64,000 nt of DNA from assembly GCA_951406725.2 (NCBI GenBank), contig OX597827.1:28706001-28770000 (forward strand), given 5' to 3'. The position numbers and the translations under genes are program-made. The DNA comes from Octopus vulgaris. Taxonomy: Eukaryota. Positions 8,076 through 52,968 of the stretch are shown in pieces (position 1 is the stretch's first letter; the number at the start of each line of letters is the position of its first letter). Below the pieces are notes generated by a model. It was not told the DNA's origin and did not search any database. It was given only the letters and a program-made list of their open reading frames with translations.

Positions 8076-8189
8076 GTGGGGAAATGGAGAGATGAGAAAA
8101 CGGAGAGAGAGAAAAAAGCGTGTCTGGATAACCAGCTCCGCATGTTGAAATGCGTGTGTGTATTTGTATGTTCAAATACATATATATAA

Positions 8190-8385
8190 TATTCTTCTCT
8201 ACGCTAAGCACAAGGCCCGAAACTTTGAGGAAGAGGAACAGTCGATTATATCGACTCCAGTATGCAACTGGTACCTTATTGACTCCGAAAGGATGAAAGG
8301 CAAAGTCGACCTCGGCGGAATTTGGATTCAGAACGTAAAGACAGACGAAACACATTTCGCCCGGCGTGCTAACGTTTCTGCCCTT
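8190..8385 (-). mobile_element. SINE family 2, alternative tail
   Basis: Minus strand GGCAGAAACGTTAGCACGCC...GTCGACTTTGCCTTTCATCCTTTCGG. Confidence 0.8.
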
Positions 8386-8557: not shown

Positions 8558-8965
8558 GGCGGCGAGCTGGCAGAAACGTTAACACGTCAGGCGAAATGCT
8601 TAGAGGTATTTCGTCTGCCGCTACGTTATGAGTTCAAATTCCGCCGATGTCGATTTTGCTTTTCATCTTTTCGGGGTCGATTAAATAAGTACCAGTTACG
8701 CACTGGGGTCGATATAATCGACTTAATCCCTTTCTCTGTCCTTGTTTGTCCCTTCTATGTTTAGTTTTTGTGGGTAATAAAGAAATAGGTATTTCGTCTG
8801 CCGTTATGTTCTGAGTTTAAATTCCGCCGAGGTCGACTTTGCCTTTCATCCTTTCGGGGTCGATTAAATAAGTACCACTGGGGTTGATATAATCGACTGA
8901 ATTCGTTTGTTTGTCCTTGTTTATCCCCTCTGTTTGTAGCCCCTTGAGGGCAGTAATAAAAATAA
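8558..8965 (+). mobile_element. SINE family 2, tandem dimer with Tx1-like tails
   Basis: Head GGCGGCGAGCTGGCAGAA, B box GAGTTCAAATTCC, body GC(C)TTTCATC(C/T)TTTCGGGGTCGA; second unit restarts at GGTATTTCG (8788). Confidence 0.85.
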
Positions 8966-9390
8966 GAACGTGAGTATCAATATTGAACACGAATAGTCAG
9001 TTTGATGCACGTGAGACAAACAGAACGGAGGTGTCGTTATCAGCGGATGTGGGTGGCTTGAAAAGTAGCGGGGTGCATCCCTTTTATATATTTTAGCCTC
9101 TTACTATGACACATATTGCATTTCATCCTTTCGGGGTCGTTAAAGTAAGTACCAGTTGGGCATTGGAGGCGTTGCAATAGACTTAACCTACGCCCCCCTC
9201 CCGAAATTACTAGTCTGGGACCTAAATTTTAAACCAATATTTGTTTCAGCTCTCAAATACTAATGAGGTCAACCTTGTCTTTGTTTTCCTTTTGGAATCG
9301 ATAAAACAGAATCGATAAAACCTGTCAAGTACAACAATCAATTTTATCGTCTGCCCCACCTCGTTGAATATTTCTGAATCTTTTACTTAA

Positions 9391-16570: not shown

Positions 16571-16765
16571 TATTCTTTTATTCTTTTACTTGTTTCAGTC
16601 ACTTGATTGCGGCCATGCTGCAGTACCACCTTTTTAGTCGAAAAAATTCGACCCCAGAACTTATTTCTTTGTAAGCCTGGTATTTAGTGTATCGGCCTCT
16701 TTTGTTGAACCGACAAATTACGGGGACGTAAACACACCAACATCGGTTGTCAAGCGATGGTGGTG
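16571..16765 (-). mobile_element. SINE family 3, 3' half
   Basis: TATTCTTTTACTTGTTTCAGTCA..GCGGCCATGCTG tail block. Confidence 0.8.
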
Positions 16766-20379: not shown

Positions 20380-21312
<933 letters not shown>

Positions 21313-25254: not shown

Positions 25255-25435
25255 AGGCAGGTAGAATGCTTCATACCATTTTGTCTCTCATAACGTTCTG
25301 AATTAAAAAATCCGCCAAGGTCAACTCTGCTAGTAATCTTTTTTCGGGGTCGATAATATAAGTACCAGTTAAGCATTGGGGTCCAATTTCCCCCTATCGA
25401 GATATTTCTGCACTTGTGCAGAAATTTTAAACCGG
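25255..25435 (+). mobile_element. SINE family 2, diverged
   Basis: ACGTTCTGAATT..CCGCCAAGGTCAAC..TTTCGGGGTCGATAATATAAGTACCAG. Confidence 0.7.
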
Positions 25436-25436
25436 G

Positions 25437-26700
25437 ATTATTATTTTGCTAGTAGATGCTAATTTAGTTAGCAGGTATTTTATCTTCAGACTTAGGGACA
25501 AGTTTCCTCAAAATATCAAGAATTTTTCTTCGGATTCTTGCAGAATTTAGAATGGTACAATTCTGCATGTCGACAATGCGAGTTACTGTTCCAATCTGCT
25601 TCAGTCTTTGAGGCAGCATTTCGGGTGTTGTGCTAAGCGGACCAATTACTGCAGGAATAATCGTTGCCTTGTTCTTCCATAGTCTCCTCAGGTCTCTGGT
25701 TACATCCTCCTATTTCTCAGTTATTTTTCATTTTCTTTGGTATGAATTCCGGCATCATAGGGAATTGCAAATCTATTATGTTACACTGTTTTTTTTTCTT
25801 TTTGTCCTCTCTGATCATATCCGGTTTTCTTACTATCAACTACACGGTCAGTCTTTATAGGAAAACGCACAAGATGTTGTACTTATCATTTTCTTTCACT
25901 GCCTCTCTTTTCTATTATTTTGAAGCCCACACACTCGGCTAACATCCCAATACACTCTTTTGCTTATACAGTCATGCTTACGTTTACACTCCTTTTGTGC
26001 TAGTATACTGCACTCGCTCAAAATGTGGCGGATACTTTCGTTTCATTTCCTGAAGATGCTACATCTGTTGCCTGACTGGGTCTTTACTGTATAAAGTTTG
26101 TTCTAAGTTTTGTTCCTGAGCGGCTATAATTAGCGTTTTGGTCTCTCACCTCAGGTTCCCATCCGTCAGCCAGCAGTCCTTCACTTCTGTTATTCTTGAT
26201 TTGTTGCATGAATTGGTCATTTAGTCCCTTCTCTTCCCATCTGTTTGCGTTGTTGTTCTTTCTTTACCCCTTCAATTCTTTTACTGTGTCGGTCACTTTT
26301 GGGTATCTTTGGCTACCGATGGCATTATTTCTTTACTCTGCGCAAAATTATTTTCCACGTCCAAAATCGCACAACTAATCGATTCATCTGCATTTAGTAA
26401 TACTCTACCACCTTCATTTCTTCGTATGCAGAGTCGGTTGATATTATTATTTTTAGGATGGAGTACATTATACGTCGTGAGTAGCTTTCTAGTTCTTCTG
26501 TCCAAGTTCTGGAGTTCGACTTTTGTCGATTTCAGAAAGGGATCAGAGTATCTCAATACGGGCATAGCCCAAGTTTTTGTGGCTTTAATGATGTTCCCGT
26601 CATTTAATTTTATTTCGAGCACCTTCCTTATTCTCCTTTTGTACTCTTTATTGACTTTCTCTCTCATTTCTCCTTCCATTATCCTATTGTCGTGTGGCTT
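25437..26700 (-). pseudogene. R4/Dong-like retrotransposon, 3' half (RT thumb, degenerate zinc knuckle, RLE, tail)
   Basis: EYKRRIRKVL..KLN.GN.IKA..TWAMPVLRYS...LDRRTRKLLT....HPK...RL...R.EGGR; downstream RKPD and IIPAVIGPL remnants; ends in AATAATAAT. Confidence 0.8.
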
Positions 26701-28334: not shown

Positions 28335-28353
<19 letters not shown>

Positions 28354-28748
28354 TCTACTCTAGGCAAAAGGCCTTGAAAATGTTGGGGAAGGGGGCTAGT
28401 CGACTATATCGACACCAATACGTAACTGGTGCTTATTTCCTCGAACCCGAAAGGATGAAAGGCAAAGTCGACCTCGCCGGAAATTGAACTCAGAACGTAA
28501 AGACAAACGAAATATCTATTTCTTCACTACCCACAAGGGGCTACACACAGAGAGGACAAACAAGGACAGACAAACGGATTAAGTCGATTATATCGACCCC
28601 AGTGCGTAACTGGTACTTATTTAATCGATCCCGAAAGGATGAAAGGCAAAGTCGACATCGGCGGAATTTGAACATAGAACGTAGCGGCAGACGAAATACC
28701 GCTAAGCATTTCGTCCGGCGTGCTTACATTTCTGCTAGCTGGCCGCCT
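28335..28748 (-). mobile_element. SINE family 2 composite: Tx1-tailed unit (28517-28748) joined to an alternative-tail unit
   Basis: Minus-strand junction AAGAAATA|GATATTTCG. Confidence 0.85.
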
Positions 28749-29149: not shown

Positions 29150-29655
29150 TTATCTTTTACTTGTTTCAGTCATTAAACTGCACCCATGCTGGTGCACCGT
29201 CGTGAAGAATTTTACTCGAATGAATCGACTCGCAATACGTTTTTGCTAAAGTCTGGTAATTATTTTATCGGTGTCTTTTTTCAAAACTGTTGAGTTACAA
29301 ACACGGACACAAAAATAATCACTCACACACACACATACACACACAAACACTCTCACACACACGCTCATACACAGTCACGCACACACTCACATACACACAC
29401 ACGCACACGCATACACATACACTCACACACTCACTCACTCTCACACAATCACACGCACACACTTCCACAAACAAACACACACACACGCACATACAGACAC
29501 ACGCATTAACACACATACACACAAATCCTGTCACAAGGCTTTGGTCATCCCGAGGCTTTAGTAGATATATTTGCCGAAGATATCACGAAGTAGGACTGAA
29601 CCCGGAACCATGTGGTTGGGAAGCAAGCATTTTGCCACACATCTATACCTGCGCC
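29150..29655 (-). mobile_element. SINE family 3 with expanded internal (CA)n
   Basis: Tail and head blocks flank a degenerate CA tract. Confidence 0.75.
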
Positions 29656-36045: not shown

Positions 36046-36593
36046 CCTTAGTTATTTTACTTTCTTCTTCATCACCTTCCTATAATCTTGTTACTTTGAA
36101 ATTTCACGATTCCTTGCCGAATATTTTTCCGCTGCCTCCAAATCACCAGGGAATTGTGCTGCCGCCCCCCCCCATACACACACCCCACTTCGCTTGATAC
36201 AGTAAAAGAAAGAAGCTAACCGATACACAATTCCTGAACTTAAACAACGATAACCACTACTACTACTACTACAAATACTGCCGCCGCTGCTGCTGCTGCT
36301 AGCTGTTGTTATTTTTCTGTTTGTGCACCTGCTGCCTCTACTGCAGTTCCACATATTGGTACCTGTTTGTAGCAGGAATTTGACTGCAAAACTAATGGTA
36401 GCTGTCGCAATTCGAATAGTTAAAGACACTGTTTTTTTTGTTGTTTTTTGGGGGGGATTGGTAGCGCCGTCGTTCAATATTGATATTGCTGTTGTTGTCG
36501 TTGTTGTTGTTGTTCCTACTGTTGGTAATGTTTGTGCTGCTGCTGCCGCTGCCGTTGCGGTTGTTGTTGCTGAAGTTTCCTCTGTTGCTGCTG

Positions 36594-36631
<38 letters not shown>

Positions 36632-36880
36632 GAACAAACGTGATAATGGTATGAAAATTCATCTGAGATTCCATTACGATAGCACGAGTCTACCTCGCCA
36701 TTTCCCGGCGGAGTTATATGTATATTTTTTTTTTCATTTTTCCTTCCTTATCTTTTATTTATTTATTTATTTATTTATTTATTTTAGCTGCAACTTTCCT
36801 CACTTGCAAATGATTAGAATCATTCTATTGAAATAGCAGGTATAATTGCACCTGCGTAATCTAATTTGAAGACTTCGTGG

Positions 36881-39406: not shown

Positions 39407-39684
39407 AATCCGTGCTGCATATACAAGAAGTGTTATATATAATTATAACAATAATTATATATATAACAATAATAATTATTGTTATATATATATATAAATT
39501 CAATTTGAAAATTCCACCAGAATGGACGAAAGCGAGATTATATGATATTTGATATATGATGTATAAAAGCATGTAATATACAAATAAATATCCGTAAATA
39601 TAAAACCATCCGAATTTTTGAGTACCTCATTTCTTCTAATATAAAATACCTGTACATCATCTCCAAACCATCTAATATATATAT

Positions 39685-40671
39685 TGTTGTGAGTTCAACT
39701 TAAGGACAGAGCCGGCGACCTACATTTGGCAATGAATCCATTGTTCTGCTAGATGCGGGTTGATTAATTAGCTCTGGGGAGACTCCCCGACCCCTTCGGG
39801 TGAATTAGGGTTCATTTGGAGGGCTGCCCCCTTAAGTAAGCAGTTCAATGTGTGAGAGACAGTGAAGAAGCGGAAGAAGAAAGTAGTGAGGAAGACAGAT
39901 TAAGGAATCTGAGCGGGGATAGAGAGAGTATTAGAGCTAAGAGAGATTGAGGGTAGTGACAGAACCAGAGGTTTTGGGCAGTCGGTATTTGGTCGTCAAG
40001 GCGAGCGGTTGGATTTAGGAGCGAGGATTTTGGAATTCAAGGCAAGCGTTTAGCAATTTGGAGTTAGCAGTACTGAGAGAGATGAGGTGCAATATGAGAC
40101 ACTGGCTATTCTAGTAGGAACTAAGGTACGTGAATTGTGTATTGATATGTGAAGAAAAAGAAGGAAAAAGAATCGATGTATTGAAATGTTGAAAAGAAAT
40201 GGGACAGTAAAAAAAAAAGAACAATGTGAACTGTGTAAAGATATTGTGTACAGAGTTGTTGAAGAGAGAACGGTGTAATGAATATTGAACTGTATAGGCC
40301 TTTAATGTCCTTTGAACTGTAACTTTAATGTGTTTTGAAACTGAACTGTTGTCTCCGGACGTGTACTCTTGAAATGCATTTGATGTGTTGATTCTGTTAC
40401 TTGTATTTACCTGATGTATGTAATTGATGTTGTAACAATTGATTGTCATAAACTAGTTGTTAAATGTGAGCCAATTGCCTTGCCTCTTTGTGTCTCTCTC
40501 GATCGCCTCCGCTGTGTCTCTGTGTCTCTTCTTGCTGCGGCTGCTGTTGTAGTTGTTGTTGTTGTATCTCTCTCTTCTCTCCGAGTTTCCGTGGGGAACA
40601 TTTGCTGCATCGAACGGGCCTGTGTGAGGGATTCCGTAACAGCTTTCGTTCGACGGAATCCCCTCGTAACA
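39685..40671. mobile_element. Solo LTR (Gypsy-like)
   Basis: TGTTGTGAG...CTCGTAACA termini (TG..CA, 7/9 inverted match), ATAT on both sides, non-coding 987 bp. Confidence 0.6.
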
Positions 40672-41764: not shown

Positions 41765-41797
41765 ATATGTATGTATATATATATATATATACATATA

Positions 41798-41850
41798 TAT
41801 TCTTTTACTTGTTTCAGTCATTTGACTGCGGCCATGCTGGAGCACCACCT
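41798..41850 (-). mobile_element. SINE family 3 tail, truncated next to the Helitron 5' end
   Basis: TATTCTTTTACTTGTTTCAGTCATTTGACTGCGGCCATGCTGGAGCACCACCT. Confidence 0.8.
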
Positions 41851-42400
41851 ATAATCTTTATATATATAAAACTGAGAATGTGTGTCTGTCTGCCTGTCTG
41901 TCTGTTTGTTTCCCTAAAACTTGAGAACTACACAACCAATTTCATTCAAAATTTACACATGCCTTACTTAGGGTCCATGTATTTTCATGGGCAAAATAAT
42001 GCTCAACTTCTTCCTAGGGCGAGCCCATAGCAATATCATATCTTCTCCACTATATCAGTATTACGTGTTAAAAGTGAAACAAAAACATTTCTCTATTTTA
42101 TGTCAGATATTTCACTTAAACAATAAAAATAATAATAACAATTGAATTATATGTAGTAAGAAATAATTAAAATCAAACCAGAGTATAATATAATCGTAAC
42201 ATAACAAAAGTAAAAATAGCAATTGGTATAAAATTGCATCAATGACTTGAACTTGAATAAGTGGTTTCACATGAATGGGAATAAATTAAAAATAAAATTA
42301 GCGTGCAGAAATGGAATAGTCTAGATGGATAATAAAATAAATCAAAGAAAAGACTATTGTCTATAAAGTATACAATGTAGAGAAAATAGAAGATTTGAGC

Positions 42401-44327
42401 ACATGGCGGAACGCAAAGAGTGTGTTGGTTAGTTATTTTGCATGTGAAAATTTGGAAAAAAACTGTTAAAAAATTGTCAAAAATTGAATCGCTTGAGGCG
42501 TTTGCCGCTGCGTGTTTGAACCTTTTATAGAAGGTGTGTCGACCCTCAAGTCATGGAGACTTACGCGGGGGTCGCCACAATAAAAAGTGACGAGTCTCTT
42601 AGAATAAGAGAAGTGTTCTTTAGAAAAGAACAATTGAAGGAATACGAGAAGTTCGTCAAAAGGGAGGGTGACAGCGTGAAGCTGGTCCCACCTGTTGAAA
42701 CAATAGAGGAGAGAAATAACAAGACGATAACGTATAGAACGCAAGATAGAAACACGAGAAAACTGGTGAGAGTGACGATTGAAGAAATAGAGAAATGTCT
42801 GGGGGACATCATGAAAAAAGCGACTTTTGTAGACAGAGGAAAGAAATATGGTACGGTGGAGGTGAGATGCGCAACAAAGGAAGTGGCGGCCTCATTGGCT
42901 TCCACTGTCCTGAAAGCCGAAAATTTCACTATGTGGCCGACGTATAAAGGAAGACGAGGGGTACGGGTAAGAGTCCCAAAGGTGCCCCCAGATATTAAAA
43001 CAGAAATGCTGGTAACAGCCATTATTGGAGCAGCAAAGGAGGAAGTAGAAATAGGGTCAATCAAGGAGACGAACGTTGTAAATTGGAAGGGATTCGGAGT
43101 AGAGTTGTGGCTGATGGCCACAATGGAAGACATCGAAAGATTTCCCTTCCAAATAGAAATAGAAAACGAGAAAACAATTAGTGTAATAGTGGAGGGCAGA
43201 AAACCGAATTGCTACCTGTGCGGATCAAGAGGGCACATAAAAGGAATGTCCGCTGTATGAATTCACAGCGGAGCAAAAAGAGACACAAAGTGGAGAGAAG
43301 GAAAACGAACACGAAGGAAAGAACAGCGAAAACAAGGAAAAGGAAATAACGGAGAAACAACAAGAGAAGGGAAGTAACAGCGCACTGAAGGAAAATGAAA
43401 ACAAAGGGAAGAAGATAGTAGAAAAGGAGCAAAATTCACAGGGTGCAGAAGTAGTGGAGAAGGAGCCAAGGCAGAAGCAAGAGAAAGAAAAGGAAAGTAC
43501 ATTAAAGGAAAGAGAAAAAGCAGGAAAAGAACAAGAGAAGGAACAGAACCAAGAGAAAGGAAAAGATGGTATGCAAAAAGGAAAAGAAACAACAGGAAAG
43601 GAACATAAGGCACAGGGTAGAGAGACGGCAGACAAAGAGCCAAAAAGACAAGAGAAGGAAAAAGAAAGAAGAGAAAGCAAAAAGAGAGAAAGAGAGAAAC
43701 CGAGGGAGGAGAAAAAAGAGGAAGTAAGTCCTAAGAGAAAAACTAGAGAAAACGTAGGTGCGAATAGAAAATTCAAATACTATGGAACGTTGATCCATCA
43801 CAGGCACTGTGAGGAGATGGAAGATTTAATAAACGTAACAAATGGATATACGTGGGTCAGGATGGGCACCGAATGGAAAGAAACAGGTGCACTCGTCCAC
43901 GAGAACGACGCTGAGGCGTTCATCGAGGCAGCTGGCAGGAACGTGACAAAACATATGAAATGCCGACTTACAAGGTGGACACGAACGATGGAAATTTACC
44001 ATGATTTGGTAGAGATAATGGAGTATATATAAAAGAAAAGGTATTGTGAAAACTTTAATTTGGAAATGATAAAAAGAACTTTAAATTCTGGAAAAAAAAA
44101 AATGTTGAACTTTGTAAAATTTTTGAAATGTATGTTGAAAATGTGTAAAATGTTTTTATTTGGAAAATATTGTTGACGAATAAAAAACAAATGACGAAAT
44201 GTAACCGCTCGATTTCGGGGATCGAGTGGGCATTACACCACATTGTACAAACTTCATAATTCATTATTCATTTTTCCCCATTGTATTGTCCCATCTATGT
44301 TCGCCCCTAGTGGGTAATAATAAAACA
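42401..44327 (+). mobile_element. ORF1-only non-autonomous Tx1/L1-like element (unit A)
   Basis: Shares the head ACATGG.GGAACGCAAA and the 3' tail with the downstream LINE; encodes only a Gag-like ORF1. Confidence 0.75.
42553..44032 (+). CDS. Gag-like ORF1 protein (CCHC knuckle, long Lys/Glu-rich region); one frameshift near 43243
   Basis: RGKKYGTVEVR and VEGRKPNCYLCGSRGHIK/ECP; a +1 shift joins ORF 42553-43260 to the stop-free frame ending at 44032. Confidence 0.75.
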
Positions 44328-44553
44328 ACATGGAGGAACGCAAATCGCGTGTGTAGTGAGTTATTATATTTTTCCTTAGTGTATATTTTCTCCGTTATAT
44401 TCTACTGTGTGTCTAATTGTCTTTGTTTTTTGTTGTACAACTGTTGAAGTCAACCTTCGTGCGAGGGCTTCGTGTTGGTGTTCCCCCCTCCGTGGGGGAA
44501 AAACTATCATTATTGCGGCTTGTGCCAAGGGCTTGTTAAGCCAGTTGCTCGAG

Positions 44554-45836
44554 ATGGAATCCCCCATCTCATATTCCCCTGTGACTAGTGAAGCAGAATC
44601 ACCGGCGGTGTCGCCAATGAAAAAAGATATTGCAGCTCCAGCGAAAAAATTTTCAGAAGTAGCTGGCAAGAAAATCAAAAAAATAAACGTCGAAGACCTA
44701 AAGAAATATGCGGACTGTGTGACAAAAGAGGGCACGGAAGTGACAGTGGTCACAAACGCCCCAAAACAGGAAGAAATTGCTAAAAGAATAATAATTTATA
44801 AGACCTTTAATGATACAAAAAATTGAGGAAAAAAAAATCGAAAATTGCTTAAAACCAATAATGGATAAGATCACATACATCAATAGAGGAAAGAGATACG
44901 GCACAGTGGAGGTGCGATTCACAACAGAGGAGATAGCTAAAAAAACTATCTATGGAGCCAATAAAAGCGGAGAACATTGTTCTCCTCCCCCTGTATAGAG
45001 GAAAAAGAACATCAAAAATCACCATGAATAATATTCCGCCAGAAGCGGATGCCGAATGTCTGGTGGCAGCAGTTATGGTAGGCCTGGAGGGAAAAATAAA
45101 CATCCTCCAGGCCACAGTAGAGGAAGAAGAATTCTGGAAAGGACAGCGGATAATAATAGCCATCCAGGCAGAAATTCAAACATTGGAGGAGATTCCAGAG
45201 ACTCTAAAAATAAGCGAAGAAGATAGAGTAATAGTTTTCGTAGAGGGCAGAAAGCCGAGGTGCTTCGGCTGCGGCAAGAAGGGGCATGTAAGGGCGAAAT
45301 GCCAACCCCAACCCAAACCGCAGGAAGCAGCTCAGCCAGGTGGAAAAGAAGAAGTGTCACCAGTAGCAGCGTCGGGCGGCCCAGAAGGGACGGCTGAAGG
45401 TGTGGAGGTGACAGAGGCAGCGGAGCCAGCGACGGAGGAAAAAAAGAGCGAGGTAACGAAAAATGAGGAGGGGTGGTCAAAAATTACTAGAAAAAAAAGA
45501 AAAACTGAAACCACCCCTCCCAAAGTGATCATAAAGAAGAAAAGAGAGTCGATGAACTTATTTATGGCCGTTAAGGCATCGAACAACAGACTCGGGAATG
45601 TGTTGGCAGCTATGGCCAAAGTGGAAAAAATAGGAAAAAAAAATGACTATATAGTGTACAGAATAGGCCGGAAGGATTACGGACGGATAAAGTCCGAATT
45701 CTTTCATGACGTGGGCCCGCTCAGAATGGATATAACATCTCCATATATATTCGAGGGCCTGCGTCAGACTCCCCCACGAGGCCCAGAAAAAGAGACAAAC
45801 AAAGAAGAAAAAGAAAAAAACGAACCACTGATATAA
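44554..45836 (+). CDS. ORF1 Gag-like nucleic-acid-binding protein; two frameshifts at A-runs (about 44820 and 44942)
   Basis: RGKRYGTVEVR; VEGRKPRCFGCGKKGHVRAKC (CX2CX4HX4C); homologous to the unit A ORF1. Confidence 0.8.
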
Positions 45837-45844
45837 AGTAAGTA

Positions 45845-48800
45845 ATGGATTACATTTATGTTGGTTGTTTAAATGTGCGCGGCCTGGGATCAGGCTGGAA
45901 GCAAGGTCGCTTCCTGCATGATATCAGGTCGAGTAATTTAGATGTTATTGTTGCTACAGAAACCCGGTTAGAGGGGCCAAGAGGTCTACTCCCGCTGTTT
46001 GACGGCTACGAGAGTTTTTTCTCTCCTGGCAGTCCTACAGGCGGGGGTGGGGTGTTGGTCCTATTAAAAAGAAACCGGGTTTCTGAGAAAAAGTTAATTT
46101 TTGCAGATCCAGAAGGTAGGCTGGTCGTCATGGATTTGACGTTCAGTAACGGTAAAGTTATCAGACTGGTTGCAATTTACGCACCCAACCATAGAGGGCA
46201 AAGTGATTATTTTCGTGAACTGGAAAACTTTCTTGGTACTTCGCATTCATTAGTTGTGCTAGGAGACTTTAACACAATTTGCAAAGCGGATGTAGATTGT
46301 GTTAGCTCGCGTCCAGATAGAAAAGGTAACAGTGGCTTCATGGAACTGCTAAGCCGCTTTGAGCTAGCAGATCCTTATAGGCTGGAATTTCCGAACGCTC
46401 CATTGTGGACATGGTCAAACAGCGACGGATCTTCCAGGTCATATTTAGATAGAATACTAATTAGAAAAGTAGACAGAAATATAGCTAAGTGTCCACAGTT
46501 TTACCTGGTCAGCTACAGTGATCATAAAATGGTCACCTGTAAGCTTGACATAGATAAGGTTAAAAATAGAGGATCCGGTTACTGGAAACTTAATACGTCC
46601 CTTTTGGCGATTAAGGAGTACAAAGACCGGATTAGGACTATAATTCAGAGGGCACTCTCTGGTACCATCATTAATAACAAATGGTGGTACGCCCTCAAAC
46701 GAGCCATCAAATTCGAGTCAATTAGATATAGCATAGGAGTAGTGGCTAGAGAGGCTAGGAGGGAAACTACTCTAGTTAAGGAATTAGAGGAAGCCTTGAA
46801 AACTGGCTCCGCGGCTCAGGTGACGTCCAAGAGACTGGTGTTAAACCAGCACCTCGAGGCCAAACACATGGGCTGCATTGTCAGGGCTAGGATCCGCCAT
46901 ATGGGTTGTGAAGGAATCAACGCCGTGAGATGGGTGGAAGCTCAGCATGGTAACGATGCCACGATTCGATCTTTGACGAACCAACAAGGTGAGTTGATAA
47001 ACGAGCCCGAGGAGATGTGTGAGGCCTTTCAGGAGCACTTCGCTCAGCTTTTCGGTGAGTGCGGCGGACTGGATAGGAGAAGGGCCTTTACGGACCTCCT
47101 CGACGGGCTGCCGCGCTTATCGGGGCGAGATGCGGAGGGCTGTGAAGGGCCAATCACGCCTGGGGAGGTGGTTGAGGCGATGGCGGACTGCGGCGCGGGC
47201 AAGGTGCCGGATTTAGATGGTCTACCCTATGAGTTATATAAGAGTATGCCAGACTTGTTCGGGCACCTACTGGCGGAGGTCTATGCGAACTGGCAGCAGA
47301 ACGGGCTCATACCCAGATCTGTGCGCCGGGGAGTAGTGACACTCGTCAGAAAGGACCCGAGCAAGGGGGAGTGCATTGATAATTTTAGGCCCATCACTCT
47401 GCTAAACACAGAGTTGAAGATTTTGGCCAAAGTGTTATCGAAAAGATTGGCGCGTGTCGCGGATGGTCTGATCGGGGAGGTACAGACATGTGCCGTTCCG
47501 GGCAGAACCATTCAGGATAATCTCCATCTTATGCGGTACACTATAGAGGGGTTTAATAGCGATTCTGGCAAGGGTGGGGCACTGGTCCATTTAGACCAAT
47601 CTAAAGCATTTGATAGGGTCGACCATCGCTACCTGGTATCTGCCCTGGCACAGTTCGGGCTGAGCCTCGGCTTCCTCAGGTGGATTATCCAAATTTACGA
47701 CAACATCGACTCGGTAGTTCGGGTGAACGGCTTCTTGTCGAAGCCGTTCAACGTCAAACGCTCGGTTCGTCAAGGGTGTCCGCTCTCCCCGCTTTTGTAT
47801 GTGATGGCTCTTGAGCCATTACTGCGAAAACTGAGCGGCATCCCGAGACAGCCAGGTAGTGGAAAATCGGTGTCAGCGTACGCGGATATCACCATCATCG
47901 TAACCGAAATGGACCACATACGTAAAGTAGGCAAGGCCATAGAGGTTTACGAGACGGTGACAGGAGCAAAAGTTAATCGCGAAAAGTCAGTCGGCTTGCA
48001 ACTCGGCACCTGGAGAGGCAAGTCGATGCCTCCTGACAGCGTCGTGGGACGTTTGACGGAGGGTCCGATTAAGTTGCTAGGGGTTTGGTTCGGTCCAGAC
48101 CTCCAAATAGAGAAGAATTGGGGCGAGGTATCGAGCAGGGTGGCTGCAGTAACCAAGACCTGGTCTTGGCGGTGGCTATCCCTGAAAGGGAGGGCGGAGG
48201 TAGCCAATGTGTTTATCGCATCGGTTATCACCTACCGCCTTTCCGTCGTTCCTTGCCCTGATTCGTGGTTGATCAAGTTGGAAAGACAGCTCTTCTACTT
48301 CTTGTGGAAGGGCGGGAAACCACTTGTGAAACGCTCTACTTGCTGTCAACAACCGTTAAAGGGTGGGCTAGGGATGCCTTGGCTGATGATGCGCAGACAT
48401 GCGCTGAGGTTAAGACATCTGTGGCTCTACCTGGATGGTGAACGGGTGTGGTCTCCGCTAGCAAAACTGATGTTTCCCAAGTTCACTAGTTTCGGTGGAT
48501 GGGAAACCTGGCTGAATCGTAGATCGAAACTAGGCACATGGTACACGGAGTGTCGCAAGGCTCTCCTGCTATTCCGTCGCTCGTGCAACGCCTGCGGTGG
48601 GGGTTCCACCACATTCTTCTATAGAGGGTTGGTAGAGGCGGAATGTGAAGATACCTTGGGGGAAACCCTAGGTCTCGACGATAATCAGCTGGCCAGTCTG
48701 TTCCGACGTACGTTCGAGCCGAAGACACTGGACAACTTCCAGAAGTCTCTGGCATGGCAATGCTACAGAGGAGCTCTACCTGTTCGGGATAAACTCGCAA

Positions 48801-49228
48801 GGCACGGTGGCCAAGACAATCCAATATGTCCAAGATGCGAGCGGGATAGGGAAACCGTCCCGCACGCTATTGTTCATTGTTCGGACGTGTCTGAGGTGTG
48901 GGTTTATGCCGAACAGCTGTTGTCAAGCACACGAAGAGTACAGCTGTCGACTGAATCGATTACAAAAATTGACCCACCAGATTTCCTCGCGAAAGAAGGT
49001 AAGAATTGTTTTCTCGTAGTAGTAGCAATTGCGAAAGAGGTGATATGGAAGACGAGAATGAAAGGTTTACAGTCAGGCAAGTTCATCTCCAACCCTGGTT
49101 TGATGAATTATTTCATCTTTCACCTGAAAAGGAAGATAGGGCTGGAGAGAATATGCCTGACTAGGAGAGTGTATGAAGAACGATGGAAAAATGTAGCACG
49201 AAAGTTGCGAATGGATGTTACCACATAA
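45845..49228 (+). CDS. ORF2: APE endonuclease, reverse transcriptase and C-terminal Cys/His domain (Tx1/L1 clade), 1127 aa
   Basis: LNVRGL, ATET, IYAPN, GDFN, SYLDRI, SDH (APE); GYWKLN; FRPITLLN, LDQSKAFDRV, VRQGCPLSPLLY, YADI (RT); CPRC...ET..H..VHC. Confidence 0.95.
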   Translation: MDYIYVGCLNVRGLGSGWKQGRFLHDIRSSNLDVIVATETRLEGPRGLLPLFDGYESFFSPGSPTGGGGVLVLLKRNRVSEKKLIFADPEGRLVVMDLTFSNGKVIRLVAIYAPNHRGQSDYFRELENFLGTSHSLVVLGDFNTICKADVDCVSSRPDRKGNSGFMELLSRFELADPYRLEFPNAPLWTWSNSDGSSRSYLDRILIRKVDRNIAKCPQFYLVSYSDHKMVTCKLDIDKVKNRGSGYWKLNTSLLAIKEYKDRIRTIIQRALSGTIINNKWWYALKRAIKFESIRYSIGVVAREARRETTLVKELEEALKTGSAAQVTSKRLVLNQHLEAKHMGCIVRARIRHMGCEGINAVRWVEAQHGNDATIRSLTNQQGELINEPEEMCEAFQEHFAQLFGECGGLDRRRAFTDLLDGLPRLSGRDAEGCEGPITPGEVVEAMADCGAGKVPDLDGLPYELYKSMPDLFGHLLAEVYANWQQNGLIPRSVRRGVVTLVRKDPSKGECIDNFRPITLLNTELKILAKVLSKRLARVADGLIGEVQTCAVPGRTIQDNLHLMRYTIEGFNSDSGKGGALVHLDQSKAFDRVDHRYLVSALAQFGLSLGFLRWIIQIYDNIDSVVRVNGFLSKPFNVKRSVRQGCPLSPLLYVMALEPLLRKLSGIPRQPGSGKSVSAYADITIIVTEMDHIRKVGKAIEVYETVTGAKVNREKSVGLQLGTWRGKSMPPDSVVGRLTEGPIKLLGVWFGPDLQIEKNWGEVSSRVAAVTKTWSWRWLSLKGRAEVANVFIASVITYRLSVVPCPDSWLIKLERQLFYFLWKGGKPLVKRSTCCQQPLKGGLGMPWLMMRRHALRLRHLWLYLDGERVWSPLAKLMFPKFTSFGGWETWLNRRSKLGTWYTECRKALLLFRRSCNACGGGSTTFFYRGLVEAECEDTLGETLGLDDNQLASLFRRTFEPKTLDNFQKSLAWQCYRGALPVRDKLARHGGQDNPICPRCERDRETVPHAIVHCSDVSEVWVYAEQLLSSTRRVQLSTESITKIDPPDFLAKEGKNCFLVVVAIAKEVIWKTRMKGLQSGKFISNPGLMNYFIFHLKRKIGLERICLTRRVYEERWKNVARKLRMDVTT

Positions 49229-49470
49229 ATGTAAAACCGGACGAAACCAAAGTATCAGTGGGGAGACGGGGCTCGTGGGGTCCGAGCTAAACCCGCTCCC
49301 ACTCCATCCGTAATGTCTTCCGGTCTGTTCTCCATTCGATTTTTTATATTTTGTAATTTTTTGTAAATTTTTAAAATTCGCTTTGTTGTAAAACCCATTC
49401 GTGTATCTGACCCCATCATCAGATTGTATTGTCCCATCTATGTTCGCCCCTTGTGGGTAATAATAAAACA

Positions 49471-49790
49471 ACATGGAGGAAAGCACCTTCGAAAAGTGTC
49501 TTTGTGCGACTATGAAAGATATCTAATCAGAGGCGGTAAAGTCGCCACAATAGAAGCAAGGTTCGAGTCAACGGAGCGTGCAAGGGAGTATTCGACTCGA
49601 ACTTGCAAAGTGGAATTATATTTTACTTTTCCCTTTATATCTGGGACGTAGGACGTCCGGAAAAAAATTTTTAATGCATCCCCCCACCCCAGAAGTAGAG
49701 GTAGGCTGTATTGTAGCCACGCTTCTATACAAGAGGGAGGGCAAGATACAATTGATCGAAATTACAAGAGACGGGCTAACAATTCCAGTC
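49471..49790 (+). pseudogene. Third Tx1-like unit (C): head motif plus a deleted, frameshifted ORF1 fragment
   Basis: ACATGGAGGAAAGCA head; IRGGKVATIEARF...LLFPLYLGRRTS...PEVEVGCIVATLL..EGKIQL aligns with ORF1 of units A and B. Confidence 0.7.
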
Positions 49791-50149
49791 TGTTATATAT
49801 TTTGAGTATTGTTATCACTAGCGATATCAACATATAACTTTGTATTTCGTATTTTATGTGTAGATGTATATATATAGAAGTACATGTAATATGTACACAT
49901 ATATATACACATATATACATGCACTAGCACTATGACCCGGCAAGGCCGGGTCTTTAATGCTAGTATATATATATATATATATCATCGACCGCATATACTC
50001 AATGCTTGTTTTCTTGTTCGTTGGTTCGCTGCGTACATCGCTCTAGAGACGACTCCTGCATAACACTGGATGTTAGAATACCTGAAAGTCATATGCAAGT
50101 GAGACACCATGCTTCCAGTCCCATCCAAGGGTGGTGGATACCGACATTT

Positions 50150-50276
50150 CGCTGCTTTCAGTTTTCGTCCACTTACAAGACTTTGGTCGACCCGGTGATG
50201 TTATAGAAGACCAGCTGTGGGACTGAACCGGAAACCATGTAGCTGGCAAGCAAACTTTTTTACCACACAGCTACGT
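50150..50276 (-). mobile_element. SINE family 3, head fragment
   Basis: GTGGGACTGAACCGGAAACCATGT...ACCACACAGC. Confidence 0.7.
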
Positions 50277-50336
50277 CTATACATTTACATACACGCTCAT
50301 ATTTAAGTTGAGGCACACACACTCATATGTGTGTGT

Positions 50337-50435
<99 letters not shown>

Positions 50436-51041
50436 GTGTGTGTGTTGTGCATATATGCAGGTATTTATACATATATATTTGACACGTTATCTCGTTTGGA
50501 ATTTCTGTATCGATAATTTTTACGTAAACTAAACACTAGACGCAGAAATCCACAGGTTAAACAAACAGCAATTCATGAACGGGTATTTTGAAAAACTATT
50601 GGACAAAGAGTCATGGAACAACACAAGTAGAATAACAACAACAGCAACAACGAAATAAAAGGAAATAAACCTAAAATTCGACAGACACCAAACCTATTAA
50701 ATATGCACAAATCATACGCCAAGTGAATGATATAAATCAAATGAACACCAACCGCAGAATAGGTGAGCACATGATCAGAAACCCACGTAAACCAAGAAAG
50801 AAAACGTGTTACAACAAACTATATATTAACGTGAGTAATATACTATTAAAACAACTGAAATTAAAAACTTTCTGAAGAATAATAAATCAGAAACTTGTAA
50901 ACCCAGGAGCCGGTGACTAACGACCAATGTGGTTTATAGATTTCTATTGTAAACGTGTAGGTTGTAAATTTCATGACTATGGCTGCTATTCTGGCAGTAA
51001 ATTCAGTTGCATACTATGGGGTTGCAGAGTAGAGGAAACGA

Positions 51042-51865
51042 GGCGGCGAGCTGGTAGAAACGTTAGCACGCCGGACGAAATGCTTAGCGGCATTTCGTCT
51101 GCCGTTACGTTCTGAGTTCAAATTCTGCCGAGGTCGATTTTGCCTTTCATCCTTTCGGGGCCGATTAAAGAAGTACCAGTTACGCACTAGGGTCGATATA
51201 ATCGACTTAATCCGTTTGTCTGTCCTTGTTCGTCCTCTCTATGTTTAGCCCCGTGTGGGTAGTGAAGAAATAGGTATTTCGTTTGCCGTTACGTTATGAG
51301 TTCAAATTCCTCCGAGGTCAACTTTGCCTTTCATCCTTTTGGGGTTGATAAATTAAGTACCAGTTACGCACTGGGGTCGACGTAATCGACTTAATCCGTT
51401 TGTCTGTCCTTGTTTGTCCTCTCTATCTTTAGCCCCTTGAGGGCAATAAAGAAATAAGAAATGTTAACACGCCGGACAAAATGCTTAGAGTCCGTCTTTA
51501 AGTTTTTGAGTTCAAATTTCACCGAGGTTGACTTTGTCTTTCATCCTTTCGGGGTCGATAAATTAAGTACCAGTTGCGTACTGGGGTAGATTTCATCAAC
51601 TTGTTCACTCCCTTAAAATTTCGGGCCTTGTACCTCGAGCACAAAAGAATATTCATACAGGAAACAAGGTGGTGAGGTGGTAGAATTGTTAACACGCCAG
51701 AGTCCGTCTTTAAGTTCTGAGTTCAAATTCCACTGAGATCGACATTGTCTTTTGTCCTTTCAAGGTCGATAAAATAAGTACCAGTTTATACATGGGTCGA
51801 TGTAATCGATTAGCCTCCCCTCTGGACCTTGCTGGACTTGTGCCAAAAAAATTTGAAATCGATAT
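51042..51865 (+). mobile_element. SINE family 2 cluster: two Tx1-tailed units, one alternative-tail unit, then a fourth copy
   Basis: Units start at 51042, 51273, 51458 and about 51668. Confidence 0.85.
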
Positions 51866-52968
51866 ATCTACACGAAACAACACAAAGCAAAACAGTGGAG
51901 TCGTATGCTGGTAACACATCTATACGCTGTTGAATTCCACAGAAAACATGTTTAAAGAGAAATTAATATATGCACTTGAAACAGCATTATATTAAAATGC
52001 CACTGGGGCAATTATTTAATGTATATTTAAACGAAAAAAACACTAGTTGTAATATTTCTTCTGAGAGAAACTTCTGAAAAAGATATGTATTTTGACAGAC
52101 TCAAGATTTTACTCGTAAAGCAAGTTGATTCTAGGTCACTATGTTTCGACCTGATTTAGTCCCCTCAGTAACAAATAAAACAGGTTCTGAGTTAAAGCAA
52201 AAATGCTTGTTCCAATACAGAAATCGATCAACAAAACATTTACTGATTCGTGTTAAAGCTAGTTAAACTAAATTTAAATTCACATACAAACTTGAAAAAT
52301 CTATTTTTCAAAACATTATTTATGTATTTTATAATTTCATTGCAATTGTATTTTGCATATCACTATAGCTATGGTGCAAGCTTTCTCTGTAAACTTTTGG
52401 GAATGACACATTAATTTGGGTCTACATTAATCACACTGAGTTAAACAGCGAGAGAATTTAACGAAGGACTTATTTAAACAATCACCCGAGAAGGAACACC
52501 TTGGATGCAAGATAATGATTGTGCAACATCTCACCAATGTATGAATGGTGTAAGAATGTGTTGAAACAATCGGAATGGTTTTACATAAATAATGCCGTTA
52601 ATTGCATCTATCATTTATCTATATAACATGTAGAATATATATATATACAAATGTGGAAGAGTACTGTCTGTAAATTTGTCAGACAAACATTTCAAAGGGA
52701 CATTTGTAAAAAGAAAAAAAGAGTGATATAGCTTTGCTCAAAATTGGGATTGGTTTTTGGACACGTTCTTTCGACCTGATTTCTTTCCCTCCAGTCAGGA
52801 ATAGTTTGTAAATGCTGAGGTAAGCTGAAACTGTTTGTTGCGATATACGAATCGGTAAATGTTATGTTTACCAATTCGTGATTGAGACAGCCAGGCTAGA
52901 ATGAAATTATTATACGCTATTGAACGAGATAAAATTTTACTGCGTTATTCTTCCACGTTTGCATATCG

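Follow-up and report, generated by a model that had tools for sequence, protein, structure and literature searches.

Several described systems resemble parts of the locus reported here, and they are summarized below as given in the accessible portions of the cited papers. In crocodilians, the Tx1-type LINE Tx1-Mar resides in a non-autonomous DNA transposon, its tandem insertions sandwich a target site duplication (TSD) of ∼16 nt, and a group of SINEs, SINEU, is linked to Tx1 (PMC4494074). SINEU elements combine an snRNA head with a poly(A) end; no LINE that shares their 3′ end was found, and the link consists of common targets (PMC4494074). A hairpin-forming 3′ end of ∼45–80 nt held in common with an L1-clade LINE is found in ZmSINE2/3 with LINE1-1_ZM of maize and sorghum and in SINEX-3_CR with L1-1_CR of Chlamydomonas; in these pairs the hairpin is backed by compensatory changes and the tail is terminal (PMC3472496, PMC3747384). 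SINEs with an L1 tail account for only three of the 58 SINE–LINE pairs in Ohshima's table, all of them plant or algal (PMC3747384). HAL1, HeT-A and Ag-Sponge are non-autonomous LINEs that have only ORF1 (PMC5786205). In molluscs, the octopus tRNA-Deu SINEs and the Deu/Nin SINEs are very abundant and modular, their body being conserved while their tails can be exchanged (PMC8967140, PMC11481361, PMC4824008), and their reported partners are CR1, CR1-Zenon, L2 and Nimb (PMC11481361, PMC4824008). SINEs make up 11.6% of the Octopus vulgaris genome (PMC13282606). The accessible octopus literature gives both tRNA-Deu SINEs and L1-Tx1 families, and a pairing of a SINE with L1-Tx1 was not found in it (PMC13282606, PMC8967140, PMC9115989, PMC10294476, PMC4758252, PMC5804259). 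Likewise, the titles and abstract openings searched contained no animal SINE with a Tx1 tail; Repbase, Dfam and the 2026 O. vulgaris library may hold these families.

In a 64-kb stretch of the O. vulgaris genome, the window of this study, a Tx1-like LINE (LINE B) and an ORF1-only unit (unit A) stand in tandem within a Helitron-like element, and one of the tails of a SINE (tail 1) resembles the 3′ end of both. As with Tx1-Mar and SINEU, the LINE lies in a non-autonomous DNA element, copies of a short motif are sandwiched in the array, and a SINE is linked to the Tx1-like element. Unlike in the SINEU system, a common tail provides the link, the array sits in a Helitron-like host, and the SINE mostly does not use the target. 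The hairpin-forming 3′ end held in common with an L1-clade LINE recalls the plant and algal pairs, but here the host is an animal, the hairpin shows no two-sided change and the tail is mostly internal. Unit A, like HAL1, HeT-A and Ag-Sponge, retains a 5′ end, ORF1 and a 3′ end without ORF2; it differs from them in being paired and in tandem with a site-specific Tx1-like element, and its ORF1 is far from that of LINE B. The SINE has the modular build and abundance of these molluscan SINEs, but its tail 1 resembles an L1/Tx1-type end. None of these elements represents a new kind. All counts below refer to the window, which is rich in microsatellites, and to public contigs from four of 24 listed runs (X1, X2, X3 and X14, the last possibly an RNA run); SINE loci with tail 1 number only three.

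LINE-type units and their Helitron-like host

LINE B extends from 44328 to 49470 on the forward strand. Broken pieces of ORF1 with a CCHC knuckle (44380–45836) precede an ORF2 of 1127 aa (45845–49228) that encodes an APE endonuclease, a reverse transcriptase (RT) and zf-RVT (Pfam Exo_endo_phos, 5.7e-14; RVT_1, 6.4e-27; zf-RVT, 1e-8). Using a library that gave only L1 and R2 relatives, ORF2 matched human L1 ORF2p over residues 3–863 with an E-value of 2e-63 and R2 proteins with 1e-21. The nearest named relative of the RT region is a protein of Argonauta hians (64%). By these comparisons LINE B is an L1-group element, its EN-RT being nearer to L1 than to R2 and APE, RT and zf-RVT all being present. 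A first-pass annotation of this DNA had called the LINE Tx1-like. Its L1-group and Tx1-like traits agree with that name; the Tx1 label is one of traits and target use rather than of placement in an RT tree, the homologues including no clade-labelled Tx1 reference. An ORF1 with a CCHC knuckle is a trait of the Tx1 clade, and the knuckle is visible in the ORF1s of both A and B; the Pfam match is weak (E 0.06), and Atlas neighbours with zf-CCHC/RRM lie at 0.88–0.90. Preference for DNA transposons as targets, common but not universal in Tx1, is seen here as two elements at one site. The YADD motif of this LINE B copy is one Asp short, and contigs from all four runs have three extra bases at that place. 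With its ORF1 fragmented and this Asp missing, the copy is probably dead.

Unit A (42401–44327, forward strand) is an ORF1-only non-autonomous LINE. Its ORF1 (∼42553–44032), which contains the CCHC knuckle and in this copy is frameshifted near 43238, is followed by a 250-nt 3′ UTR and by no ORF2; a tblastn search of unit A with ORF2 found nothing. The ORF1 had no homologue among the longer proteins searched, and its identity to the ORF1 of LINE B is only ∼30–57%, over short pieces. The 5′ leaders of A and B are similar, and the tail of unit A (44280–44327) is identical at 47 of 48 positions to that of LINE B (49423–49470), which contains GCCC-N5-GGGT and AATAAA. The two 3′ UTRs align only in their last 63 nt (61 of 63 identical), corresponding to the 48-nt tail plus a 15-nt motif. 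HAL1-type elements keep ORF1, lack ORF2 and have the 5′ and 3′ ends of their autonomous partner; unit A has the same composition and, by analogy, likely works like HAL1. All bins of unit A were covered in the four runs, with variant contigs, the depth not being a copy number, and one X14 contig covers 43642–44268, crossing the ORF1 stop and the UTR. The near-identical tail, the common 5′ leader and the same tandem insertion site together point to mobilization by the B-type machinery. As judged from sequence, it is very likely that this machinery moves unit A, and to this extent the earlier proposal that the LINE family mobilizes the ORF1-only unit is supported.

Units A and B are inserted in tandem at a single site of a host element that spans 41855–49963. 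Helitrons start with TC at the 5′ end, terminate in CTRR at the 3′ end behind a subterminal hairpin, and insert between A and T. The 5′ part of the host (41855–42400, forward strand) starts with TC after an A. Its 3′ part, which together with the third copy of the 15-nt motif (49471–49485) occupies 49471–49963, ends with an 8-bp hairpin (49934–49952), CTAG and then a T. The terminal hairpin is strong relative to shuffled sequences (z −4.35). As all four features are present, we take the interrupted element to be a non-autonomous Helitron.

The 15-nt target or TSD-like motif is found at all three junctions of the array, at 42401–42415, at 44328–44342 between A and B, and at 49471, the first copy differing from the last at two of 15 positions. 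A scan of the window with a 16-mer revealed no further site at two or fewer mismatches and one chance-like site at three. Joints that correspond to the empty site, from 42386/42390 to 49470/49471, were observed in at least three of the four runs (X1, X2 and X3; among the 15 joints listed of 579). The uninterrupted site also appeared among the loose ends in at least 29 contigs of X1 and at least four of X14 (among the 24 loose ends listed of 5378). In X1, X2 and X3 the tail was also joined to position 49778 of the same host (again among the 15 listed joints). The leaders of A (42401–42460) and B (44328–44390) are target-like and differ from the host copy at the same position; LINE-type units may therefore have at their 5′ end a target copy that belongs to the element itself. 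The leader also resembles a YY1 site. An snRNA target like that of Keno was considered for the 63-nt block and rejected, Rfam giving only sub-threshold microsatellite matches on 42000–52500. Named targets of Tx1-like elements in the accessible literature are piggyBac, Mariner, Harbinger, LTR elements, snRNA and microsatellites, and Helitrons are absent from them.

Some further features of the window were recorded. The Helitron-like element is inserted directly beside one copy of another repeat family, which has a distinct conserved end (41770–41854, 20641–20725, 16579–16631, 29153–29198, 1583–1625 and 2232–2266), presumably a CORE-type SINE of octopus. The stretch at 39680–40660 is GC-richer and free of microsatellites, contains a polypurine run and has TA repeats at its flanks; it is possibly a solo LTR or another element. 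On the minus strand, 36094–36747 gave a weak Pfam match to the C-terminal domain of TMEM106 (E 0.0017, below the cut-off), perhaps a host exon.

The SINE and its tails

A profile of the SINE body found 17 matches in the window. Sorted by eye, five have tail 1, three have tail 2, five have a tail resembling tail 3 and four have none. The copies of tail 1 are at 51226–51270, 51410–51455, 8745–8785 and 8917–8961 on the forward strand and at 28563–28520 on the minus strand. Each of the five aligns with the terminal ∼45 nt of LINE B (49423–49467, forward strand) at ∼75–80% identity over 41–46 columns. Local alignment scores of the five tails were 36–41 against the terminal 70 nt of LINE B and 31–36 against those of unit A. 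Dinucleotide shuffles gave a mean of 13–15 and a maximum of 25–31, and in each of ten tests none of 2000 shuffles matched the observed score. When 12,786 70-nt windows from both strands were ranked, the ends of LINE B (38.4) and unit A (33.6) came straight behind the five SINE tails, the next window scoring 27.8, so that, SINE copies aside, nothing in the 64-kb window matches tail 1 better than the LINE-type ends. A blastn search with the LINE B end retrieved 44280–44342 (61/63 identical) and the SINE tails. The alignment of the SINE tail with the LINE end reported in the first-pass annotation is thereby confirmed, and homology of the tail between the SINE and both LINE-type units is supported. 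Identity between SINE and LINE is ∼75–80%, compared with 98% between A and B. In contrast to tail 1, tails 2 and 3 scored 10–16 against the LINE end, which is the level of the null. Stringent SINE–LINE pairs share 35–80 nt of 3′ sequence, and tail 1 and LINE B share a stretch of this length. The match is also within the range of bivalve pairs, which share 35–61 bp at 72–95% in the accessible part of that report (PMC11481361). No match was obtained with the tail pattern in viral, metagenome and prokaryote collections, with a SINE body pattern, with ORF2 in metagenomes, or by blastn against plasmids; this is expected for an animal repeat and is uninformative either way.

The shared tail had been described as the 3′ end of a SINE at 51042..51650. 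This did not hold. The element at 51042–51655 (forward strand) is a trimer whose terminal tail 2 shows no relation to the LINE end when aligned with it (scores 14–16). Monomer 1 (51042–51272) consists of a head, the conserved body and tail 1 with its LINE-like part at 51226–51270; monomer 2 (51273–51455) begins at head position 48 and has tail 1 with its LINE-like part at 51410–51455; monomer 3 (51456–51655) begins at head position 14 and ends in tail 2. At the expected places, 51030–51041 and 51656–51667, lies a 12-nt TSD-like direct repeat with 10 of 12 matches (background 0.26% for a 20-offset search). If this repeat is the TSD of the trimer, the primed end was tail 2. A separate monomer with tail 3 follows from 51668 to ∼51862. 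The second SINE copy (8558–8968, forward strand) contains two tail-1 monomers, the last tail 1 having no clear monomer behind it, and the third (28345–28748, minus strand) contains a tail-1 monomer and then a monomer terminating with tail 2 plus a TAA run. A TSD of the second copy is doubtful, an 8-nt match lying 25 nt beyond the tail, and was left out of the analysis. The monomer-1 copies are 88–91% alike. The SINE body may be of the tRNA-Deu/Nin type. A check of the head for tRNA features gave an A-box-like match at 51052 and no strict B-box match, and ARAGORN and Rfam found no tRNA.

Four of the five tail-1 copies are internal, with the next monomer, entered at head position 48 or 14, directly behind them (15–18 of 20 positions agree with the SINE head). 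At the tail 1 near 8964, the following sequence has only 10 of 20 matches to the head. SINE copies that terminate in tail 1 may thus exist, the 8558 copy being a candidate. The 26 nt past this last tail 1 (8965–8990) look like the beginning of monomer 3 joined directly to the end of tail 2, as might be left by the deletion of a third monomer. In a stringent SINE–LINE pair the shared sequence is terminal in the SINE, and neither the internal position of tail 1 nor the tail-2 end of the trimer agrees with this.

Insertion sites were also compared. The two TSD copies of the trimer match the LINE target motif at 10/15 and 9/15 positions. Among 14 SINE flanks from eight loci one reached 10/15 and 13 were at 9/15 or below, with a background of 2.2% per flank; the resemblance is not significant after counting, and it is located exactly at the TSD. 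No SINE copy was found in the Helitron-like site of A and B, only one such element being recognized in the window. The possibility that the LINE target lies inside the SINE was rejected, the sequence behind the LINE tails matching the SINE head at only 9–10 of 20 positions. Mobilization of the SINE by this LINE family, which the first-pass annotation had proposed, was not borne out: tail 1 is mostly internal, the trimer ends in a tail that matches the LINE end at background level, and the copies lie outside the Helitron-like site. On the reading preferred here, the three-member system proposed with it reduces to the pair of LINE B and unit A; the likeness of the trimer TSD to the target is the one hint of SINE membership.

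A GCCC-N5-GGG(U/C) stem-loop had also been claimed for the SINE and LINE tails. The structure can form in six of seven tails, and the 8734 copy, although decayed, still pairs. In the seven sequences all 27 cells of this short 4-bp stem pair, variation being mostly in the loop, and RNAalifold applied to the seven tails selects it (−3.96 kcal/mol). Folds of single sequences, however, favor a longer outer stem that reuses the same GGG, with pair probabilities of 0.0–0.5 for the short stem. In this outer stem 49 of 56 cells pair, and both LINE-type tails fold into it by preference. Folding energy is clearly better than that of shuffles in one of six tails (z −3.65), the others having values of +0.02 to −1.47. 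Neither stem contains two-sided compensatory changes in the seven sequences; all stem changes are one-sided C/U swaps opposite G. A stem-loop in the tail is therefore plausible from these predictions, with the 4-bp and the 8-bp outer stems competing; the claim survives as a hairpin that can form but is weak.

Tails 2 and 3 (51601–51655, 28345–28398 and 8185–8240; 51811–51865 and 25386–25440) do not align with tail 1 but often share its CUUG(U) loop, on a stem of reversed polarity. A small hairpin around this loop is present in four of eight predicted folds, its stem differing from that of tail 1. Since such hairpins are common in tails 2 and 3, a sister Tx1 origin is possible, and both tails may come from sister Tx1 families. 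Copies with tail 2 end beside TAA or TA runs, which might point to a Dong/R4 element. By Pfam, no further LINE or RT fragment occurs among 40 of the other ORFs of the window, and the source of tails 2 and 3 is therefore not traceable in it.

Origin of the shared tail

The best reading of the locus is a two-member pair, Tx1-like and HAL1-like, together with a SINE that has a borrowed tail and to which another tail was added later. With slightly better than even confidence we propose that a B-type RT reads the common tail and moves unit A, and that the SINE took its tail 1 from a related Tx1-like family, this tail now being mostly buried in a multimer with another terminal tail. The proposal builds on four direct observations: the similarity of the tails, the A–B tandem with the motif at its junctions, the empty site in other runs and the layout of the trimer. 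The endonuclease of B would nick the Helitron site, and target-primed reverse transcription (TPRT) would leave a duplication of 15–19 nt that renews the target, allowing A and B to stack in tandem. Unit A, retaining the 5′ leader, ORF1 and the tail, would borrow ORF2 as HAL1 does. A SINE monomer ending in tail 1 would once have existed and been primed by a Tx1-like RT. Template switching could then have placed full-length tail-1 RNA ahead of 5′-shortened monomers, joining the two at head positions 48 and 14; tail 1 would thereby have been buried and priming passed to a LINE that reads tail 2. Both tail exchange and template switching are known in other SINEs, according to the accessible parts of two reports (PMC5786205, PMC4824008). 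Points against the best reading are that tail 1 is present at three loci only, that it is terminal in the 8558 copy, that tails 2 and 3 often form hairpins around the CUUG(U) loop, and that the TSD of the trimer resembles the LINE target. The last likeness would fit insertion by B-type machinery even for a trimer ending in tail 2.

It is unlikely, in our judgment, that three members form a functioning system around a single hairpin, with unit A and the SINE both mobilized by the B family or by one very closely related to it. The tail match above chance, the full pairing of the 27 cells with variation chiefly in the loop, the likeness of the trimer TSD to the LINE target and the 8558 copy that stops near tail 1 would all suit such a system. 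Weak targeting by a SINE has a precedent, SINEU-1 and SINEU-2 having a target occupancy of only 13–23% in the available text (PMC4494074), and L1-Tx1 has been recently active in O. vulgaris, with 13 families and 421 insertions given in the accessible part of that study (PMC13282606). Against this, only one of the five tail-1 monomers lacks an internal position, tail 2 is what terminates both the trimer and the 28748 copy, all but one of the 14 SINE flanks stay at or below 9/15 matches to the target motif, and the SINE–LINE identity of ∼75–80% falls far below the 98% of A and B. We find it distinctly improbable that the transfer ran in reverse, with Tx1-like families taking the tail of the very abundant SINE, or that both obtained it from a LINE of another clade. 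The SINE body is dense (17 in 64 kb), making capture by template switching easy; the tail is near-identical in A and B while all else has diverged, which suggests that it travels between families; and the partners reported for mollusc SINEs are CR1, CR1-Zenon, L2 and Nimb in the available text (PMC11481361). However, both LINE-type units terminate exactly with this segment, directly before the target motif. Another upstream context joins the same tail at an X14 loose end at 49422, which fits a functional LINE tail, and the 40 other ORFs yielded no other RT fragment.

Relatedness might also be mimicked by convergence on a generic 3′ signal composed of a U-rich tract, a small hairpin and AATAAA. 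The match is short (41–46 columns) and partly of low complexity, and the folding energies are mostly no better than those of shuffles. Yet 0 of 2000 shuffles reached the score in all ten tests, the LINE-type ends held the top non-SINE rank of the 12,786 windows, and the other tails of this SINE (2 and 3), which are also 3′ ends, fail to match; we regard convergence as very improbable. Scarcely credible is an account in which the insertion of B into the tail of A produced the shared 63-nt block as a single long duplication, leaving B without a tail of its own. It would explain 61/63 identity beside unrelated upstream sequence in A and B, but the last 15 nt belong to the empty site of the host. 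Variant contigs at 49416 and 44271, slightly upstream of the respective tails, in several runs, with depths summed in the thousands and far higher than for the single long contigs listed, further suggest that both links between UTR and tail are multicopy, depth being a poor measure. In a broader scenario, about which we are rather doubtful, stringent recognition of RNA tails would operate in an animal L1-group lineage. Octopod Tx1-like families would read a small CUUGU-loop hairpin and would have been the source of all three SINE tails, with the same loop and a swapped stem; they would have driven one of the largest expansions of octopus SINEs, served an ORF1-only parasite and become nested in a Helitron.

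A tail common to a Tx1-like LINE, its ORF1-only companion and a SINE is evidence from an animal for the ancestral stringent recognition that Ohshima proposed in the L1 group. The shared tail is a short, mutable element suited to direct assay. The buried tail of the SINE is likely the trace of a former partnership, for which there are few reports from animals, and the sharing of this tail offers a candidate for a past driver of octopus SINEs.
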